A stretch of DNA of 64,000 nucleotides from Parcubacteria group bacterium (GTDB lineage Bacteria; Patescibacteriota; Minisyncoccia; Phycocordibacterales; WO2-35-19): positions 32,283-96,282 of the forward strand of contig JAAZAU010000009.1 in NCBI GenBank assembly GCA_012514175.1, written 5' to 3'. The first letter of the stretch is position 1. Every line of letters starts with the position of its first letter. The notes below the pieces were generated by a model. That model was not told where the DNA came from and ran no database searches. It saw nothing but the letters and a program-made list of their open reading frames with translations. This document shows positions 1 through 53,998 of this stretch, piece by piece. The position numbers and the translations under genes are program-made.

Positions 1-628
1 TAATGTCTAAAACATCGTTTAATACGCCATCTAACCTGTATCTTAATCGGACTACTCCGTCTTCTGGTTCTATATGAATATCTGATGCATCAATAGAAAT
101 AGCTCCGGCTAATATTATTTCTAAAACTTTAGATACGCGATAATTTTTTTGAGAAAGAATTGTTTCTAGAGATTCTTTGATGTCTGCAATACTTTTGACT
201 GACGCAACCAAGCTTTCAATCTCTTGGTTTTCAATATCTACAGCCCCGCTTTTGGTTTCCATAGAGTGCGACAAATCTTTGTAGCGTTCCCAAACTTTGT
301 CTAAACTTTGGTGTGACGCCATAAAAATATTTGGCACATAACCTCGTTTTTTTAGATCTTCAATAACCGCAATGGTTTTTTCATTATGAGGGGAAATAAT
401 CGCTAAGGAAACTCTTTTGTTAACTATATTAAAAGGCGCTACCTTAGCTTCCCGAGCTTCTGATTCTTTGATGGTGCGCAAAGCGTCTATGTTTACCAAA
501 CTGACGGATAAATCAACGTAAGGCAAACCATATTTTTGAGACATAATTTGAACAAGACCTTCCTCTTCTTGTTCCCGAAGTTCTTTAATTCTTTGTCTTT
601 GTTTGTCTTCGTTAAATTGAACGGTCAT
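1..628 (-). CDS. pilB: Type IV pilus / type II secretion assembly ATPase PilB/GspE, N-terminal part (3' end runs off window)
   Basis: Reverse-strand ATG at 628-626. The translation MTVQFNEDKQRQRIKELREQ...ASDIHIEPEDGVVRLRYRLDGVL contains the GspE/PilB 'ASDIHIEP...R.DGVL' signature. No stop before the window edge. Confidence 0.6.
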   Translation of the reverse strand, partial: MTVQFNEDKQRQRIKELREQEEEGLVQIMSQKYGLPYVDLSVSLVNIDALRTIKESEAREAKVAPFNIVNKRVSLAIISPHNEKTIAVIEDLKKRGYVPNIFMASHQSLDKVWERYKDLSHSMETKSGAVDIENQEIESLVASVKSIADIKESLETILSQKNYRVSKVLEIILAGAISIDASDIHIEPEDGVVRLRYRLDGVLNDVLDI

Positions 629-707
629 AGTTTAAGTATAGCAAATTTTTAATTTTTAATTCACAATTTTTACACAAGTTTCAACGTTTTATTTTAGAAT
701 TGTTAGC

Positions 708-735
708 TTGACAAATTCTGTATATTTGCTATAAT
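708..735 (+). promoter_or_regulatory. sigma70-like promoter (TTGACA-16-TATAAT) for the GC-rich ORF
   Basis: TTGACA at 708-713 and TATAAT at 730-735, 16-nt spacer. A strong SD (AGGAGGG, 776-782) lies 5 nt upstream of the ATG at 787. Confidence 0.5.
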
Positions 736-786
736 TAGGGGTAGGTGGTGTTCTATTAAATTTAAATTAAAAAACAGGAGGGCGAG

Positions 787-1356
787 ATGGGAAAAAAGAG
801 TTTGTCGGTCATTTTGTGGCTCTTCTTCTTCGCTTTTTTGGCAGTTTTTTCCGCGCTTGGTCAGGAAACCAAGGCGGAAAAGGCGGAAAGAAAGGCCATT
901 GAAAAGGCCGAAAAGATCTTCCGCCAGCAGGAAAAGTGGAAGATCCAAGCCGGCCTCTCGTGCCCCTTGGGTGGGTACGAGGAAGTTTTTATCCACCCAA
1001 GCTTCGGACGCCAGCTCCTGTATTGGAACGGAGCCGGCGTCCACGGGTTCTTTGCTAGCAGGTACGTCTTTGTCATTGAGGCAAAGAACCCGTACTCCAA
1101 CCTCACTCTAGAAATCAAGAGGGGTGGGGAAAAAGCGGTTGAGAACATGTGCCCCGGCGGCTCAATCGCTTTAGTAGATAGCGCTCCTTTCGGGAGTCGC
1201 TATAAACGGGTGGTCTGGACCGCCCAGGGGGTAGTTGAGGGCCGGATGGCCTTCGGCTACAGCAATCCCGGCTCAGTCTACGTCGGGGGCAGAGAAGGGG
1301 TTAGAGTGTCCTACCCCTGGCTGATGACCCTGGACAGGGTCGACGTCGAATTTTAG
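787..1356 (+). CDS. Secreted hypothetical protein, GC-rich (~57% GC) foreign-looking gene
   Basis: 189-aa ORF with an N-terminal signal-peptide-like hydrophobic stretch (LSVILWLFFFAFLAVFSALG). Its codon usage and GC content differ sharply from neighbours. It is flanked by a consensus promoter and a compound hairpin terminator. Confidence 0.6.
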   Translation: MGKKSLSVILWLFFFAFLAVFSALGQETKAEKAERKAIEKAEKIFRQQEKWKIQAGLSCPLGGYEEVFIHPSFGRQLLYWNGAGVHGFFASRYVFVIEAKNPYSNLTLEIKRGGEKAVENMCPGGSIALVDSAPFGSRYKRVVWTAQGVVEGRMAFGYSNPGSVYVGGREGVRVSYPWLMTLDRVDVEF

Positions 1357-1357
1357 T

Positions 1358-1411
1358 CAGTCCCGTTGGATAAAATCTTAAAAAGATTTTGTTCAACGGG
1401 ACTTTTTGGTT
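1358..1411 (+). terminator. Rho-independent terminator (compound hairpin GTCCCGTTG...CAACGGGAC + T-run)
   Basis: A 9-bp GC-rich outer stem encloses an inner AAAATCTT/AAGATTTT palindrome, followed by TTTTTGGTTT. Confidence 0.6.
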
Positions 1412-1448
1412 TATGGCAGAAGTGTGGCGGTAATGATAATATCAATAT

Positions 1449-1940
1449 ATGGAATTTATATCTAAAAATTTGACAGAAACTTCAAAAATAACCTTTGATT
1501 TTATTGATAATTTGAAACCTGCGACTGGTGGAGCAACTGTGGTTGGACTTTATGGAGACCTGGGTGCAGGCAAGACTACTTTTATGAAATATTTAGCGGA
1601 AGCGCTTGGTTTAGAAGAGGTGATTCAAAGCCCCACTTTTGTTATTATGAAATTTTTTAACCTTGCTGAGCAATCTGAAAACGCAAGATTTCCAAAAACT
1701 GAAAATCCGAAAATAAAAGGTTTTCAAAAATTGATTCACATTGACGCTTATCGTATAGAAGAAGTGAACGAAATGCTTGTTTTAGGTTGGGATAATATCG
1801 TTTCTGATCCTAAAAATCTGGTTTGTGTAGAGTGGCCAGAGAAAATCACTTCTATTATGCCTCCGCATATCAAAATATTTTTTGAACACCTTTCTGAAAA
1901 CGCAAGAAAAATAAAAATAAAATTTAATGAAGAAAACTGA
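1449..1940 (+). CDS. tsaE: tRNA threonylcarbamoyladenosine biosynthesis ATPase TsaE (YjeE)
   Basis: P-loop GDLGAGKTTF and the SPTF motif typical of TsaE. 163 aa. The TGA stop overlaps the polA start. Confidence 0.7.
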   Translation: MEFISKNLTETSKITFDFIDNLKPATGGATVVGLYGDLGAGKTTFMKYLAEALGLEEVIQSPTFVIMKFFNLAEQSENARFPKTENPKIKGFQKLIHIDAYRIEEVNEMLVLGWDNIVSDPKNLVCVEWPEKITSIMPPHIKIFFEHLSENARKIKIKFNEEN

Positions 1941-20500: not shown

Positions 20501-21611
20501 ATCAGGTGGAGAGTTGGCAGGTGAGCAATCCCATGAACAATTTCAACAAGGAGGCAAAACACACAAGGGACCAGTTGAGAGTTTGTTTGGTAAACCGAAC
20601 GAGAATCTCTTAGAACAATTACGACAATCAGAGGAGATGATTGGTAGTAAATTTTCAACCAAAGATGAAAGCGGTAATCTTGTAGCAAGAGATATGAGTC
20701 AAAACGTTAGAGATAGGCTACAAAATGAGACATCTGTCATTGATCAAGCTCAAGCCCATCAGTTAGAAACTCTTGATGAGATCAGACGCCAACAACAGAC
20801 AAAGATGGAGGCGGTGTATAGAGAGATGTCTGGATTGGATGGTGAAGCGCTTCGGGTTTATGTAGATTATATGGAATCAACAAAAGAATTTATCACCGAT
20901 TTAACACAATTCTTTATTGACAAATTCAAACTTGATAAAGAGTATCTTCGTGAACGTAATCAAAGACGCGGTGCAAGATTACAAAGAGGATTTACCCAAA
21001 ATATTCTTGGGCAAAGAGAAGGGACTACTGTTATAAATCCCCGTTCCTTTGAACGTAAACGTCCACCAGAAAAACCGCAATTTGCTTGGACGCTTGTTAT
21101 AGACAATTCTGGTTCTTGTGGTGGTGAAATTATTGAACAAGAAAAGAAATTGGCTGTAGCTCTGGTTGAAGTGGCTAAGAAATTAGATATACCATTTGAA
21201 ATCGTTACTTTTGGAGGTCCTAATGAATTTACCTTTCTTAAGCAATTTGAACAAGATATGTTTGGAGATGATCTTCAAAAAATGGTATTATTACGGGCAG
21301 ACCAAGGCACTCCTGATGTAATAACCTTGGATGCGGCTTGTACAAGTATGAAAAAATATACTGACAAGTTTAGACGGTCGTATAATTTTGTGTATTTTAT
21401 GACTGATGGTGAATCTGGTGAAGGATCAATTCAGGAAGTTATAGAAAGACACAAGAAAGATATGGTTATTACTGGCATTGGCTTGGCCGAAGCGGCTCAA
21501 ACCATAGGGCAAACATGGGGCAAAAACGCAGTTGAAGTTCCTGATATAAAAAAACTATCTGACATTTTTATTAGAAAAATTGAAGAGCAGATAGATTCAA
21601 CATTTGATTAA
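17520..21611 (+). CDS. Giant (1363 aa) protein with N-terminal domain, ~900-aa E/Q/K/G-rich low-complexity acidic linker, and C-terminal von Willebrand factor A (MIDAS) domain
   Basis: C-terminal WTLVIDNSGSCGG...T..G...D...MTDGESGEG carries the DxSxS...T...D MIDAS pattern. The central region is a coiled-coil/disordered EQK-rich stretch plus a Gly-rich segment (GEGSGGEPGQPGSSGQGQGG...). Confidence 0.7.
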   Translation: MLTEPRDMQFTPEKPKTPEISQIEKDLNEIIPILAHGLVRRIEQKGFSGKVRVQAIAGDAWGVAKSPDNLTDVPNVIIYPRESLSGDLRLVNARLRHEIGNINYPIDVELNALRGWCYENEVAPELLTSLVEATHEASVNFLEMRNSHSSNPEENFRALYEQEINTQQIADNIPQYAPYKQVVDLTLLYSLSQTGLVPVEQFEQALSVAHPAVQEVFDKQTRSILDQSVRMAVPKAQVQLVRDFLWPKFSGLVALSCPAEGDKGKAETGEDLNTHSKQKELSPEAQVCAEKAKELQKKIQQMMQKMHQQAKDSKKPSLEKTDKQKKESPKRQEQQLSPAEKQERKEEEDLLAQNLQEQLQQAREKFEQLQKPDAKPEVPKPQEKPSSMQDIGKQAEQMRQEAERAMQEAQESGVQDEVTEEQLQQLKEQLEQLEEVAKQIAESGALEEELAKPEEEPIVYNIKEIGINEAELTPEQLETLQKTRAFAQNTSKVYRTAIRLLMKGYQEGNPKFTDEIMRKMMERSYDVPNFSIYGSQAGQEFLSQREELGVDGFSDNFLVNFQLPKPLARFWYKGGGGKKSVSVKEGEIEWGHFYRMCMPVIYSGVDRAQMSGLYLNRLNQFGQHDPKKYYYLWETINLWQEREKIEQEREKQKEEALKEMQEQLQQMREKLGEMRDQASGESEDQETDDQKSEKQGQQQGEQSGEKSNTQQAESSKQPAQSGEKHQNAEQKSGEQKQAGQEQQSSEQGSEKLSAQELQKQIEELKEQVNDMTKDAEERGDQAMADQLKEMKEQLEEMVEKLEQGEQGEKQGEDGGEGSGGEPGQPGSSGQGQGGDEGLGEGEGLGEGGQEQSQGGQPGKGVGQSKGAGQSGGQSGEMGGEGGEPGGMESGDGGMPSVQEMQEFLQQIQDALNQVKGQGGSGQEVTDQLIEQLSQMQESLESGATPQEMTRQMQDMMRKLSEAMSDMQSKEQEEDQGEGQPSEQSGESSGSESGESGGELAGEQSHEQFQQGGKTHKGPVESLFGKPNENLLEQLRQSEEMIGSKFSTKDESGNLVARDMSQNVRDRLQNETSVIDQAQAHQLETLDEIRRQQQTKMEAVYREMSGLDGEALRVYVDYMESTKEFITDLTQFFIDKFKLDKEYLRERNQRRGARLQRGFTQNILGQREGTTVINPRSFERKRPPEKPQFAWTLVIDNSGSCGGEIIEQEKKLAVALVEVAKKLDIPFEIVTFGGPNEFTFLKQFEQDMFGDDLQKMVLLRADQGTPDVITLDAACTSMKKYTDKFRRSYNFVYFMTDGESGEGSIQEVIERHKKDMVITGIGLAEAAQTIGQTWGKNAVEVPDIKKLSDIFIRKIEEQIDSTFD

Positions 21612-22160: not shown

Positions 22161-22183
22161 GCAAAAGCTATACTCAAGTGAGT

Positions 22184-22256
22184 GGCGGAGTAGTTTAATT
22201 GTTAAAATGTGATTTTTCATTAAGTCAAGATAGAGGTTCAAATCCTTTCTCCGCCA
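22184..22256 (+). tRNA. tRNA with atypical anticodon arm (anticodon UCA under canonical numbering; CAU if register shifted)
   Basis: Perfect 7-bp acceptor stem (GGCGGAG/CTCCGCC) and a T-arm AGAGGTTCAAATCCTTT. The D-loop lacks GG. The anticodon region GUGAUUUUUCAUUAAGUC pairs perfectly only with a 6-nt loop. Confidence 0.55.
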
Positions 22257-22261
22257 CCCGG

Positions 22262-31941: not shown

Positions 31942-32400
31942 CTACCTTTTTACTGCCTCATACTGCTCAAAAGTAGCAGTCATGGTGTCAAGGAAGTCAA
32001 TCAAAGCCTTGGGTCCATTAGCCGATACGGCTTTGGATCTAAGCTTTGCGAGTTCATCGACGCTCTGCTGAGATACGAAAATGTTTTTCTGGATCAGAAA
32101 CATTTCGTATTCAAAAAGACTTTTTAAAAACTTAAGAGTTTCTGAAAGATTTTCGGTCGCCACATCAGCCAAAGTCAGACCAAAATCGGTGAGCGTCGCG
32201 TCGAGATCGTAAAGGGCAAGACCTCCTTTTCCGGTATTCAACGCCTCAATCATTGACTTCTGTGGTTTTGAGACGTAGTGTGACATGAACCAAGTGTCAC
32301 CAATTTTTGTTAGGGCGCTGGGTCGGCCACCAATTTCATTGTGACTGCCTAAAATAATTGAGCCCTTACCAGTGAAAGACGTGGGTTTTGGGATAGACAC
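31942..32400 (-). CDS. Hypothetical protein (152 aa)
   Basis: ORF with moderate coding potential. No recognisable motif. Confidence 0.45.
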   Translation of the reverse strand: MSIPKPTSFTGKGSIILGSHNEIGGRPSALTKIGDTWFMSHYVSKPQKSMIEALNTGKGGLALYDLDATLTDFGLTLADVATENLSETLKFLKSLFEYEMFLIQKNIFVSQQSVDELAKLRSKAVSANGPKALIDFLDTMTATFEQYEAVKR

Positions 32401-51661: not shown

Positions 51662-53572
51662 ATGAAGTTTTCAGTGGGATTCAAAATTATGAAATTAAAA
51701 AACAAATTGTTCGCAAGCGCTGTAGCTTTCACAATGGTGTTGAGCTTGGTTGCAGTTCCTGCTTCCGCTCAAACTACTGCTGAACTTACAGCTCAGATCA
51801 ATAGCTTGCTTGCTATGATCGCTCAGCTTCAAGCACAAATCGCTAGTATTACTACTGGTGGTTATGCTGCTACAACCTTTACTAAAGACTTGACCGTTGG
51901 TTCTACCGGTGCAGAAGTATCTGCCCTTCAACAGTTCTTGGTCTCCAAAGGTTTCCTCACTATGCCAGCTGGCGTAGCTTACGGTTACTTTGGTTCTTTG
52001 ACTAAGGCTGCTTTGGCTGGATACCAAGCTTCAGTTGGTATTGCTCCAGCTGCTGGTTACTTCGGTCCTATCACCAGAGCTCACCTTAACGCTTTGACAC
52101 CTACTACTACTCCTGGTAGCACCACTGTTGGCGCTATCACCACTCCAGGTGTTGAAGGCACCCTTTCAGTAAGTTCAAACAACTCTGGTTTGGTCTCAAC
52201 CATCTATGAAGGTGATGAGAACGTAGCTATCTTGGGCTTCAATGTTGAAGCTAAAAACTCTGACATTGCTGTTCAAAGAGTTAAGTTAGATTTGGGTGAT
52301 ACCACTCAGATTTACAACAAGATTTATTCTAAGATTTACGTCACTGATGGTTCCAACGTTTTGGCTTCATCTGACTTAAATTCTTCTACTGTTGTGAAAG
52401 ATAATGGTAGATACTACATTACTTTGACCGGTTTCAACTTTGTTGTCTCAAAAGATGCTAAAAAACAAGTTGTTATCAAGGCTGATGTAATGCCTACTAT
52501 TGACTCAACACTCATTAGCCAAACTTACACTGTAAGATTGGCCGAAAACGGAGTAAGAGGTGTTGACGGTGCTGGTATTGATCAATACGCCGGAGGAACT
52601 TCTATAACTAAGAGTGTTACTACAGCTAAGAGTTTAACTGACAGTGCTGCTTTGAAGATGTCTTTGAATAATTCATCTCCAAAGAAATCTGAAGTAGTGG
52701 CTTCTGAAGGTTCAAACAACAATGAACTTGATAAGCTTTCAGTTTTGGTTTTTGATGTCAAGGCTGAAAAAGACAATGTCACTCTTAATGATTTGAAAGT
52801 CAATTTTGTTGTGGCTGGCGGTAATGCAGATGTTTCTACTGTTTACCTCTATGAAGGTTCTACTGAATTGGACAACGCTTCTCTCAATGGTAACGTTGCT
52901 TCCTTTACTGGACTTGATTACAACATCTCCAAAGATGCAACTAAAACCCTTACTGTTAAGGTTGATGTAAGGAATGCTGGAGAGGCTGTTACTACAATTA
53001 CCGCTTCTTCTTCTGCTTCTGATCTTGTCGCTGAAAACAGTGTTGGTGATACAGTTGCAAGGAGTGGTTCTGCTAATGGTTATGATATTAGTGTCAGAAG
53101 CGCTGGTCTTGAAATCGCTTTGGTCTCAAGAAGCATTACCACCAATGGCGTAACTCAAGCTAGCGATGCTACCTCCACCTTAACTGCAACCTTCAACGTT
53201 AGAGTTAAGGCTCTTGGTGATGATATCACTTTGGGTACTGTTGCTTCTTCTACCCCAATGTTCAACAACACAAACAGCTTTGCTGTATATAAGAATGGTG
53301 TTGCATGTGATCACGGATCAACTGTGGCAGTTTCTTACACTCTTCCTTCAAGTTGTACTCCTTCTGAAGCCAACAATTGTGTTTTGGCTGAAGGCAATGA
53401 GATTACCTTCCCAGTTACCTTCCAAATTTATGGAAGACAGGCTAATGGTACAGCTCTTACTTCCGGTATCTACTCTGTAGGCATTGCTCAAGTCCAATGG
53501 GGTTATAATAAATCATCAACCTTCATGGCTGGTGAAATTGATTGGAGCACTTCTGAAGTTAGCTTCCCGTAA
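51662..53572 (+). CDS. Secreted cell-surface protein with N-terminal peptidoglycan-binding (PG_binding_1-like) domain and large T/S/V-rich beta-rich region
   Basis: Signal peptide, then STGAEVSALQQFLVSKGFL...GYFGSLTKAALAGYQ...GYFGPITRAHL (PGBD repeats). GC content is higher than neighbours. Confidence 0.6.
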   Translation: MKFSVGFKIMKLKNKLFASAVAFTMVLSLVAVPASAQTTAELTAQINSLLAMIAQLQAQIASITTGGYAATTFTKDLTVGSTGAEVSALQQFLVSKGFLTMPAGVAYGYFGSLTKAALAGYQASVGIAPAAGYFGPITRAHLNALTPTTTPGSTTVGAITTPGVEGTLSVSSNNSGLVSTIYEGDENVAILGFNVEAKNSDIAVQRVKLDLGDTTQIYNKIYSKIYVTDGSNVLASSDLNSSTVVKDNGRYYITLTGFNFVVSKDAKKQVVIKADVMPTIDSTLISQTYTVRLAENGVRGVDGAGIDQYAGGTSITKSVTTAKSLTDSAALKMSLNNSSPKKSEVVASEGSNNNELDKLSVLVFDVKAEKDNVTLNDLKVNFVVAGGNADVSTVYLYEGSTELDNASLNGNVASFTGLDYNISKDATKTLTVKVDVRNAGEAVTTITASSSASDLVAENSVGDTVARSGSANGYDISVRSAGLEIALVSRSITTNGVTQASDATSTLTATFNVRVKALGDDITLGTVASSTPMFNNTNSFAVYKNGVACDHGSTVAVSYTLPSSCTPSEANNCVLAEGNEITFPVTFQIYGRQANGTALTSGIYSVGIAQVQWGYNKSSTFMAGEIDWSTSEVSFP

Positions 53573-53597
53573 TTCTAAAAATTTAAGAGCACTTGTG

Positions 53598-53648
53598 TCC
53601 GCCTTAGCGGAGCTCACAAAAAACCACCTCCCGGTGGTTTTTTGTTGG
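53598..53648 (+). terminator. Rho-independent terminator (tandem hairpins + T-run)
   Basis: CCGCcttaGCGG and AACCACCtcccGGTGGTT followed by TTTTTT. Confidence 0.6.
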
Positions 53649-53998
53649 GCGCTTTTTATTTTCTTGCTCTAATTGGGGTTTTGTAATTTATGATCCCAAC
53701 CATTCTTTAATTTAAGTTATACACAAATTATTAACAGGTTATTCCCAAAAACAATATTATAATGAGAAGGAGTTTGTTTGGGGTGTTTATTTATTGTTTA
53801 TAACAACAATCAAACCAAATTAAGTAAAATCAATAAATCTTAACAATCTGTGTATGCGTTATTTCAGTAAAACATTTTTCAAATTCGCTTTGGGTTTTTT
53901 GTGTATTGTTTGTGCCAGTCTTTTGATGATAAGTTTAGCGTCAAATTTTATAAGTGAGGATACCGATAAAATGCAAGCGGCTTCCCTGAAATGATTTT

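Follow-up and report, generated by a model that had tools for sequence, protein, structure and literature searches.

A GC-rich gene beside a pilus-type ATPase gene of Paceibacteria, its composition probably explained by selection on mRNA folding

The stretch of Parcubacteria DNA analysed here (64,000 nucleotides, hereafter the window) carries, between a pilB-like ATPase gene and tsaE, a small gene, X, whose odd, GC-rich composition is probably explained by the folding of its mRNA. On balance, we favour the view that X is a long-resident, mainly vertically inherited gene, and that selection has favoured extensive pairing in its message, which is probably long-lived and highly expressed. Under the mechanism we propose, X would be a monocistronic gene in a conserved "expression slot"; selection acting at the RNA level would choose synonymous sites that pack the coding sequence with local hairpins, and GC-richness would be actively maintained together with them. 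Since stable hairpins need G:C pairs, a gene under such selection would become a GC island in a genome drifting towards AT. A heavily paired message of this kind may resist RNases and have a long half-life. Such a long-lived, high-output mRNA would be in keeping with the consensus extended -10 promoter, with the 21-bp terminator and with a ribosome-binding site that is strong and lies in an AU-rich leader left unpaired; its product is predicted to be an abundant envelope protein located at the cell surface.

The slot is bordered on the left by the 5' portion of the pilB-like ATPase gene of the T2SSE family (1-628, minus strand), which is transcribed divergently, reads ATG ACC GTT CAA on the minus strand from 628 and whose T2SSE domain (PF00437) was called in an identical locus, L002. 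Its right border is tsaE (1449-1940, plus strand; Pfam TsaE, E = 4e-27; GC 33%, GC3 0.25). All elements between them lie on the plus strand. A putative sigma-70-type promoter at 708-735 consists of TTGACA (708-713), a 16-nt spacer and TATAAT (730-735), matches at 12/12 positions, has a TG extended -10 at 727-728 and is the only perfect TTGACA-N16-18-TATAAT in the window. The Shine-Dalgarno sequence AGGAGG (776-781) stands in an AU-rich leader 5 nt before the ATG of gene X (787-1356), an ORF for a 189-aa protein with a signal-peptide-like hydrophobic N-terminus. Shortly downstream, an intrinsic terminator (1359-1408) combines a 21-bp hairpin, with 21-nt arms at 1359-1379 and 1383-1403 that are 90% complementary, and a following TTTTT; it folds at -29.5 kcal/mol (z = -8.4 against shuffles). 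These signals suggest a monocistronic unit, which we call cassette 1, whose promoter, ribosome-binding site and terminator are all strong, and it is from them that high expression of X is inferred. The GC-rich ORF, the promoter, the Shine-Dalgarno sequence, the secreted nature of the ORF and the terminator are thus all present at or near the places where the original prediction had put them. The terminator, described there as compound, is indeed a strong hairpin, but one that is long and continuous, with no outer stem around a separate palindrome. A single DnaA-box-like site occurs at 668. A replication origin at the slot was considered and set aside, the cumulative GC-skew minima that fall near the slot in some loci being inconsistent.

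Gene X has a GC content of 54.6% (GC1/2/3 = 0.54/0.42/0.68), which upholds its GC-richness at a value somewhat below the roughly 57% first given, while the whole window stands at 36.7% and the neighbours tsaE and polA at 33-34%. Among 56 long ORFs of the window the median GC3 is 0.28, and only X (0.68) and the ORF at 62957-63754 (0.62) reach extreme values. Other genes of the window that are presumably well expressed, such as those for ribosomal proteins, are not GC-rich, a point against the preferred reading. The GC-rich block corresponds to the body of the coding sequence only (847-1356, 56% GC). GC falls to 26% in the intergenic segment with promoter and leader (629-786) and to 40% in the 60 nt that open the coding sequence.

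The second ORF of extreme GC3, ORF Y, belongs to a comparable unit, cassette 2 (62790-63814, plus strand), in which a promoter (62790-62818; TTGACA-17-TATACT with TG) is followed by a candidate hammerhead-like ribozyme (62826-62911), ORF Y itself (62957-63754) and a terminator hairpin (about 63767-63814). The candidate ribozyme has the CUGAUGA and GAAA cores, a GUC triplet and pairing helices I-III, the loop of helix II being enlarged by an insert of 34 nt; its score with the hammerhead type III family of Rfam, 34.2 bits (E = 3e-5), is below the gathering score of 48.5. ORF Y has no signal peptide. That the two units share an architecture, as had been proposed, is borne out by several measures: they hold the only perfect -35/-10 promoter of the window and its only other TTGAC plus extended -10, both terminators are among the four strongest hairpin-plus-T-run sites, and both coding sequences combine the two extreme GC3 values with extreme mRNA structure. 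The proposed CCCGnTTG terminator signature, however, is at chance level, with 8 matches where 6.4 +/- 2.6 are expected, and half of these (4/8) are the two terminators' own arms.

From these features the original prediction had inferred a recently acquired foreign cassette, brought in from a high-GC donor (a host or partner) as one of several by a common mechanism. Such an origin would account for the strongly atypical composition, for a self-contained unit with its own promoter and terminator, for a second unit with similar signals in the same window and for the relative of the ORF Y protein found in a phage-like contig of 56% GC. Nevertheless, the gene order T2SSE (minus strand), X (plus strand), tsaE, polA is common to 25 related Paceibacteria loci, and in 24 of these X exceeds the GC content of the rest of its own locus by 0.07 to 0.24, so that similarly GC-rich homologues exist in AT-rich relatives, a finding that the original prediction had itself named as counter-evidence and that applies here to cassette 1. 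X occupies the slot wherever an examined context is long enough (L001, L005, L006, L011, L013 and 12 GTDB representative genomes), and of 80 related loci about 55 have the T2SSE neighbour; among named organisms the nearest relatives are Ca. Zambryskibacteria (Paceibacteria; Parcubacteria). When 1.84 billion representative proteins were searched exhaustively with a profile, a family of only 32 clusters emerged, and in the contexts examined, which cover part of these clusters, no X homologue was found outside the slot of this clade. Native, AT-rich composition is seen in the promoter, in the leader and in the coding sequence up to its 60th nt. No direct repeats flank cassette 1, no tRNA gene lies within 4 kb, and no mobility gene or recombinase was found among the flanking genes, which are housekeeping genes. 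An integron-type cassette was likewise rejected: X has its own consensus promoter, the flanks encode no integrase, and the hairpin with its T-run is terminator-like, the absence of attC being judged by eye. Misassembly at cassette 1 is excluded because the identical X gene has been read in identical context on 24 contigs of up to 195 kb, the loci shown coming from different samples. Together with the saturation of synonymous sites between orthologues described below, these observations largely refute a recent foreign acquisition, which we now hold to be very improbable.

A transfer into the ancestor of the clade is a different matter, since the GC-richness of X might then be a fading, functionless relic of incomplete amelioration. 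The X family is confined to one clade, with no detectable relatives elsewhere, which is compatible with a single ancient gain as well as with an origin de novo, and one AT-adapted orthologue, in L025 (GC 0.29), shows that the GC excess can be lost entirely. Yet identity at four-fold sites between X orthologues is only 0.15-0.32, where 0.23-0.30 is expected by chance, and these completely turned-over sites still have a GC4 of 0.39-0.75. If X were a neutral relic, its GC4 should meanwhile have come down to that of its neighbours, which ranges from 0.12 to 0.36 in the lineage of the window. Since the four-fold sites are saturated while GC4 is high, the GC content of X is maintained rather than left over from a donor. 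A relic would also leave unexplained both the excess of structure over codon-preserving shuffles and its correlation with GC, and we consider this origin improbable.

The GC content of X goes together with this excess of structure. In separate runs against synonymous-codon permutations, the minimum free energy of the window's X gave z = -5.5, -6.1 and -6.8; over all synonymous-shuffle tests z ranged from -5.3 to -8.0, the value of -5.3 being obtained when codon swaps were limited to blocks of 20 codons, and the whole X mRNA reached z = -12 against dinucleotide shuffles. About 70% of the bases of the coding sequence are predicted to be paired, with a folding energy 25% stronger than in synonymous-shuffled controls, and in the centroid structure the transcript stays unpaired over roughly its initial 100 nt, which take in the leader and ~55 nt at the start of the coding sequence. 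Five predicted internal hairpins illustrate this packing: 839-898 (arms 839-854 / 883-898), which runs from the last part of the signal peptide across the linker, 966-1001 (966-977 / 990-1001), 1006-1042 (1006-1018 / 1030-1042), 1043-1093 (1043-1055 / 1081-1093, complementary at 13/13 positions) and 1132-1172 (1132-1143 / 1161-1172). In comparison, 48 other genes of the window have a mean z of -0.33 (sd 1.1, minimum -3.3), and neighbour genes in other loci as well as GC-rich phage genes fall mostly between -2 and +2. Among 24 X orthologues, which are not statistically independent, the median z is -5 and the mean -4.7, with 18/24 below -3; four show little excess (L001, -1.2; L017, -1.9; L022, -0.1; L025, -1.6). 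GC excess and z are correlated (Spearman -0.58), and the AT-adapted orthologue of L025 is among those with little excess of structure. The feature extends beyond the X family, with a mean z of -3.1 for 30 unrelated occupants of the slot (29/30 negative) and z = -8.8 to -9.7 against synonymous shuffles for ORF Y, whose energy excess, like that of X, is 24-25%. An excess of this size is comparable to the values given for viral RNAs that are highly structured.

Several results bear on what kind of structure may be selected. The sense strand is more stable than the antisense strand in 9/10 genes tested and its z more negative in 8/10, which favours an effect at the RNA level, but the antisense excess is also strong in some genes (-6.9 for the window's X, -7.0 for that of L011), which may point to a DNA-level cause such as inverted repeats as such. 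No local pair is common to at least 5 of 12 sequences, and the consensus fold of nine codon-aligned X orthologues is weak (-22 kcal/mol), on which grounds a specific conserved RNA fold was rejected. As hairpin positions are not conserved, they offer no proof by covariation, only a recurring excess of generic structure. The pairing could also serve a role other than longevity: it could slow or gate translation for co-translational export, block Rho loading on a poorly translated message, or give the RNA a second role as scaffold, decoy or source of processed small RNAs. The structure excess is real and sense-biased, which such roles would accommodate; its size in both X and ORF Y is very large, every slot gene encodes an exported protein, and the hammerhead-like ribozyme of cassette 2 suggests processing at the RNA level. 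Export coupling is nevertheless not a general cause, ORF Y being equally structured without a signal peptide, and a specific RNA machine is at odds with hairpins that change position as well as with the lack of any Rfam family match within 600-1500, where sub-threshold, miRNA-like hits to the 839-898 hairpin were the only ones obtained. We regard these roles as unlikely. Even under the preferred reading of a long-lived message, heavy structure could lower rather than raise the translation of X.

The occupants of the slot change between lineages. In more distant relatives it is filled by GC-elevated genes for small lipoproteins (with a lipobox) unrelated in sequence to X, at least five sequence-unrelated protein families are represented, and a near-consensus TTGAC...TATAAT promoter stands upstream of 16/28 unrelated occupants, just as TTGAC(A/T)-17-TGnTATAAT promoters stand upstream of X orthologues. 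Profile-profile comparison of the other occupants with X aligned the signal peptides alone. Only in a few loci (e.g., L034, L038, L072 and L090) is the slot shorter than 300 bp. Such turnover raises the question of a hot spot at which variable surface lipoprotein genes recombine or are exchanged as cassettes, and where GC would rise through GC-biased conversion or because genes are replaced again and again from a GC-rich gene pool. This would suit a slot whose unrelated families often share a similar promoter and whose occupants are all GC-elevated, and would also suit the sharp discordance between X and housekeeping identity in some pairs (L073-L075, PolA 88% and X 35%; L005-L011, PolA 80% and X 37%). 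Overall, however, X identity rises with PolA identity across pairs (Spearman 0.52, p = 5e-13), and cassette 1 has no recombinase or att-like repeats. Biased conversion would lift GC without arranging synonymous sites into hairpins, leaving the structure excess unexplained, and conversion tracts would hardly produce a GC block so sharply confined to the body of the coding sequence. We therefore see an exchange hot spot as a distinctly unlikely source of the composition of X, and retain vertical inheritance with selection on folding.

The X protein is best read as a fast-evolving, probably secreted protein that would be a lipoprotein in most relatives. In the AlphaFold2 model (pLDDT 91), the signal peptide is joined by an extended helix rich in K, E and A (residues 29-54), a charged linker, and by a beta-sandwich domain of ~130 aa. 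In a 30-sequence alignment C59, C122, W144 and W178 are invariant, and the family shares the motifs NPY, CPGGSI(T)L and WTA. A hydrophobic N-terminus is found in all members and a lipobox cysteine in 17/30; in the window's X the signal peptide is a plain one that lacks this cysteine. X has no match in Pfam, NCBIfam, PHROGs or PADLOC, and a sequence profile search against the PDB gave noise at the level of signal peptides only. The best Foldseek matches (E 0.07 in the PDB, 0.003 in BFVD, TM below 0.3) gave nothing usable beyond "beta-sandwich".

Atypical GC content is routinely read as horizontal transfer, and a strong GC island that is better explained by selection on mRNA folding calls for caution with transfer calls based on composition only in AT-rich reduced genomes. 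More tentatively, one may imagine that the Paceibacteria slot beside the pilus ATPase gene expresses interchangeable, fast-evolving surface lipoproteins from extremely base-paired messages, that the GC islands of these AT-rich, ultra-small bacteria are "armoured" mRNAs and not foreign DNA, and that selection on the RNA likewise shapes at least one unrelated gene behind a hammerhead-like ribozyme; taken as a whole, we consider this picture possible but doubtful. If true, armoured mRNAs would be nature's equivalent of therapeutic mRNAs optimised for structure, and might be an adaptation to cells with very few ribosomes or to attack by RNases while the cell interacts with a host. A slot next to pilus machinery that holds a conserved, probably highly expressed and rapidly diversifying surface protein would in any case offer a candidate factor for host attachment in Paceibacteria, organisms that are mostly not culturable.

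Several known systems resemble the X unit in part. Horizontally acquired islets of atypical GC share with it a sharp compositional break and a self-contained transcription unit; X differs from them in its clade-wide slot, its saturated synonymous sites with GC kept, its native flanks and its lack of mobility signatures. The slot also recalls the expression loci of variable surface proteins, such as pilin and surface-antigen sites, in that a strong promoter and the position are conserved while the exported proteins of related lineages diverge greatly or are unrelated, and in that it adjoins a type IV pilus-type ATPase gene. Unlike these loci, it shows no silent copies, invertible elements or recombinases, and it varies between lineages, not within a population, the protein being identical on the 24 contigs.

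The lpp gene of E. coli (Braun's lipoprotein) is similar to the X unit as a small, monocistronic envelope-lipoprotein gene in which both the promoter and the intrinsic terminator are strong. Nakamura, Pirtle and Inouye reportedly described extensive hairpins in the lpp mRNA in their sequence paper of 1980. In the same test as applied to X, however, the lpp coding sequence is not over-structured (z = -0.96; 44/300 shuffles fold as well), and it has no sequence or fold relationship to X and forms no compositional island in its own genome. With a half-life of ~10-11.5 min, where the average is 1.3 min, the lpp mRNA is unusually stable; it yields ~750,000 protein copies per cell (PMC5924895, PMC10260701). 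Since it does so without the structure excess, mRNA stability does not require this feature.

In design, X also resembles engineered "superfolder", structure-optimised mRNAs, which likewise combine an open 5' end with a heavily paired body. In these, synonymous codons are chosen to maximise pairing of the coding sequence while the start is kept open, which raises GC content and resistance to hydrolysis and nucleases, and highly structured coding regions designed in this manner led to a longer functional mRNA half-life and to more protein (PMC6883848, PMC8940940, PMC8499941). Engineered mRNAs are man-made and were tested in eukaryotic cells or in vitro, whereas X is a natural case from bacteria that evolution has maintained, with an effect that is so far a prediction. 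If structure does stabilise its message, X would be a natural, evolutionarily replicated case of a design rule of mRNA medicine, the paired body with an open start, with dozens of independent sequences from which to learn.

The window is AT-rich (36.7% GC overall) and belongs to Parcubacteria/Paceibacteria; several of the species representatives closest to it in PolA (65-72% identity) bear the name Ca. Zambryskibacteria. The original prediction placed a self-contained GC-rich unit of promoter, Shine-Dalgarno sequence, secreted ORF and terminator at 700-1412, and each of these elements was located. Divergently from a pilB-like ATPase gene (1-628, minus strand), the plus strand carries a promoter consisting of TTGACA, 16 nt and TATAAT with a TG extension (708-735), an AGGAGG (776-781), the 189-codon ORF of the secreted-protein gene, here called X (787-1356), a terminator made of a 21-bp hairpin and a T-run (1359-1408), and tsaE (1449-1940). 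The terminator is one long hairpin instead of the proposed outer stem enclosing an inner palindrome, and its CCCGnTTG-type similarity to that of the second GC-rich cassette is at chance level. The ORF has 54.6% GC, hence 55% and not the anticipated ~57%, still strongly raised over background, and a third-position GC (GC3) of 0.68, against 33-34% GC and GC3 of 0.25-0.26 in the adjoining tsaE and polA. Extreme GC3 is restricted, among the 56 long ORFs of the window, to X and the ORF at 62957-63754 (GC3 0.62). The GC-rich block corresponds to the coding body alone (847-1356, 56% GC); the upstream intergenic region with promoter and leader (26% GC) and the first 60 nt of the coding sequence (40% GC) look native in composition. 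The region between the divergent genes (629-786) contains one DnaA-box-like site (TTTTACACA) at 668, and cumulative GC skew climbs from ~600 through most of the window. Skew minima of related loci lie near this position in some cases only, so that a replication origin there is neither supported nor excluded.

A protein identical to X is deposited as 'hypothetical protein GX627_01340 [Parcubacteria group bacterium]', and X was found in identical context on 24 contigs of up to 195 kb, the displayed loci coming from different samples. X is a genuine protein gene, not a product of faulty assembly, which settles the concern about the cassette edges. Its family is small: a profile search run exhaustively over 1.84 billion representative proteins found 32 clusters. 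An alignment of 30 members reveals a signal peptide, a K/E/A-rich linker and a domain of ~130 residues, in which two Cys and two Trp are invariant and the motifs NPY, CPGGSI(T)L and WTA are present; a lipobox cysteine occurs in 17 of the 30 and is absent from the X of the window. In the AlphaFold2 model (mean pLDDT 91), a signal helix is followed by a second, long helix (residues 29-54) and by a beta-sandwich of nine strands; searches of Pfam, NCBIfam, PHROGs, PADLOC, PDB sequences, PDB folds and viral folds returned no useful match.

To place X among its relatives, we retrieved 80 loci by a PolA scan of GTDB species representatives and then applied the X-family HMM, which detected X upstream of tsaE in 12. 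Judging from sequence identity between the window and the related locus L001 (PolA 70%, TsaE 61%), the loci compared for X come from genus-to-family-level relatives. The order T2SSE(-)/X(+)/tsaE/polA holds for every X homologue with readable context (L001, L005, L006, L011 and L013), the flanking genes are housekeeping genes, and no direct repeats flank the cassette. X exceeds the rest of its own locus in GC by 0.07 to 0.24 in 24 of 25 loci; such GC-rich homologues in the same slot of AT-rich relatives run counter to the suggested acquisition of this cassette from a high-GC donor. Under identical amino acids, four-fold sites of X orthologues are 0.15-0.32 identical, as compared with 0.23-0.30 predicted from base composition, and therefore have fully turned over. 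Their GC is nevertheless 0.39-0.75 versus 0.12-0.36 in the neighbouring genes of the window lineage; GC is thus maintained, which rules out a fading donor signature. Recent transfer from a foreign donor is essentially refuted by the occurrence of X in one slot across the clade, the turned-over four-fold sites, the native-composition promoter and leader and the missing flanking repeats. An ancient transfer of which the GC would be a relic is highly improbable as well, being contradicted by the saturated synonymous sites and leaving the base pairing of the message (see below) unexplained. The identities of X and of PolA are correlated across pairs (Spearman 0.52), and X evolves much faster than PolA, sometimes discordantly (PolA 88%, X 35% between loci L073 and L075). 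Rather than a recent acquisition, X is a resident gene of the whole clade, which encodes a fast-evolving secreted protein or lipoprotein and occupies a conserved expression slot.

For the predicted X mRNA (742-1405), the folding energy is -302 kcal/mol, compared with -228 +/- 6 kcal/mol in dinucleotide shuffles (z = -12, negative values meaning more pairing than in controls). Permutations preserving the protein and exact codon counts gave z = -5.5, -6.1 and -6.8 for the coding sequence in three runs, an energy excess of 25% over synonymous-codon permutations, and z remained at -5.3 with swaps confined to 20-codon blocks (~47 nt changed). About 72% of the bases are paired in the predicted fold, chiefly in local hairpins (median span 24 nt), several of which form almost perfect inverted repeats 12-16 nt long. 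In the centroid structure, the leader and the initial ~55 nt of the coding sequence stay open. By comparison, 48 other genes of the window average z = -0.33 (sd 1.1, minimum -3.3), and neighbouring genes of other loci as well as most genes of a phage contig with 56% GC range from about -2 to +2, so that high GC by itself does not account for the excess. The excess extends to 24 X orthologues (mean z = -4.7, median -5.0, 18 below -3; p = 2e-10 versus background) and scales with their GC excess (Spearman -0.58, p = 0.003), being mostly gone (z = -1.6) in the sole AT-rich orthologue, that of locus L025 (GC 0.29). Hairpin positions are not conserved across orthologues, and it is the amount of pairing, not one particular fold, that is maintained. 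The GC-richness of X accompanies exceptional mRNA secondary structure and probably stems from it. In 9 of 10 tested genes the sense strand yields the more stable fold, and in 8 of them it has the more negative z, which favours an RNA-level cause without proving it. Because antisense excess equals sense excess in some genes, the inverted repeats may also have a role at the DNA level. That the pairing instead gates translation, keeps Rho away or serves some further function of the RNA is unlikely.

The T2SSE(-)/slot/tsaE(+) synteny itself is found in ~55 of the 80 loci. Where no X homologue was detected, the slot mostly measures 500-2000 bp and usually holds another small gene (110-300 aa) whose product has a signal peptide and, in most cases, a lipobox. 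These genes form at least five sequence-unrelated families, of which only the signal peptides align with X in profile-profile comparison. They are GC-elevated as well and over-structured (n = 30, mean z = -3.1, 29 of 30 negative, p = 6e-10 versus background); 16 of 28 are preceded by a near-consensus promoter like that of X, and several of those promoters start TTGACTTTTA, a beginning shared with some X orthologues. The occupant is either replaced now and then or has diverged past recognition while its expression signals persist. A recombination hot spot with GC-biased conversion would fit the exchange of occupants and the cases of discordant identity but explains neither the pairing nor the sharp boundary of the coding body, and we consider it quite unlikely. 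Between the X terminator and tsaE, four relatives share a GC-rich conserved element, TTGCCCCGCGTAGC (L001 10698-10711, L010 1171-1184, L016 1372-1385, L022 3917-3930), which continues ...TTTAGCGAAGTGGGG in L001 and L010, differs past the core in L016 and was not found in the window. At L011 9151-9531, a PemK/MazF-type toxin gene is inserted between tsaE and polA, adjoining the slot.

The architecture predicted to be common to X and the second cassette (62790-63814) holds and extends to the RNA structure excess. The promoter of the latter is the sole other TTGAC promoter with extended -10 in the window, and its terminator hairpin is among the four strongest. Its GC-rich ORF Y (62957-63754, +) is more over-structured than X (z = -8.8 to -9.7 versus synonymous shuffles). 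Y encodes 265 aa with an 'IDHH' motif recognised by eye and no Pfam domain, and belongs to a widespread family that lacks annotation and counts at least 1376 proteins from bacteria, archaea and phage-like contigs; a homologue with 59% identity resides in a similar ribosomal-protein neighbourhood. The first 450 nt of a relative in a phage-like contig with 56% GC (L015 6001-7005) reach z = -8.2, an excess that other genes of this contig lack. The Y leader contains a hammerhead type III-like motif (62826-62911, +), which Rfam scores at 34.2 bits (E = 3e-5), short of its gathering threshold of 48.5. The cores of the motif are CUGAUGAG and CGAAAC, its cleavage triplet is GUC (~62831-62833), and the loop of helix II is enlarged by a long insertion; if the motif self-cleaves, the Y message would carry a 5'-OH. 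The two cassettes share signals and an RNA property but differ in history, and therefore probably reflect a common selective regime on RNA, not a common entry route.

A 636-aa secreted protein (51662-53572, +), Ala/Thr/Ser-rich with a peptidoglycan-binding-like segment discerned by eye, is a possible surface-layer component; a similar protein encoded beside a Y homologue matches PG_binding_1 weakly. Its gene has mildly raised GC (0.44) and z = -3.3, the hairpin at 53593-53652 is the strongest terminator of the window (-31.6 kcal/mol), and the gene is possibly a further example of a structured message encoding an exported protein. The 152-aa ORF at 31942-32400 (-) has the third highest GC3 outside the rRNA operon (0.46) and z = -3.1 versus synonymous shuffles, with no obvious signal peptide. 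A local GC bump (0.49) at 19801-20400 (+), within a 1363-aa ORF (17520-21611), is purine-rich with very strong G-over-C (0.42) and A-over-T (0.30) skews. The 23S rRNA match (58719-62519, +) spans 3.8 kb versus 2.9 kb in the model, and the gene therefore contains one or more insertions; rRNA intervening sequences and introns are common in this radiation. The 23S region encloses ORFs of 80-82 aa (60559-60807, 61740-61982). ARAGORN calls a tRNA at 22183-22259 (+) and gives it a four-base anticodon, 'tcat', without assignment; Rfam scores a normal tRNA there (55.5 bits). An unusual loop in a CAT-anticodon tRNA may account for this.

We propose that X is selected at the RNA level. Stable hairpins require G:C pairs. 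In this lineage, where mutation pressure pushes genes to GC3 ~0.25, a gene selected for a paired coding body would appear as a GC island. X would be made as a monocistronic message from a promoter of maximal strength, its open 5' end permitting initiation, its paired body and 3' hairpin shielding it from endo- and exonucleases. Such stabilisation would prolong the functional half-life of the message and give a high output of its product, presumably an abundant envelope protein located at the surface. Designed mRNAs support the principle that a structured coding body prolongs functional half-life and yields more protein (PMC6883848, PMC8940940, PMC8499941). In nature, lpp of E. coli encodes a small abundant lipoprotein from a very stable mRNA (PMC5924895, PMC10260701). 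Unlike X, which goes well beyond it, the lpp coding sequence is not over-structured by the same test (z = -0.96). We regard X as a variant of the stable structured messages for abundant envelope proteins, one in which the effect of the structure is predicted.
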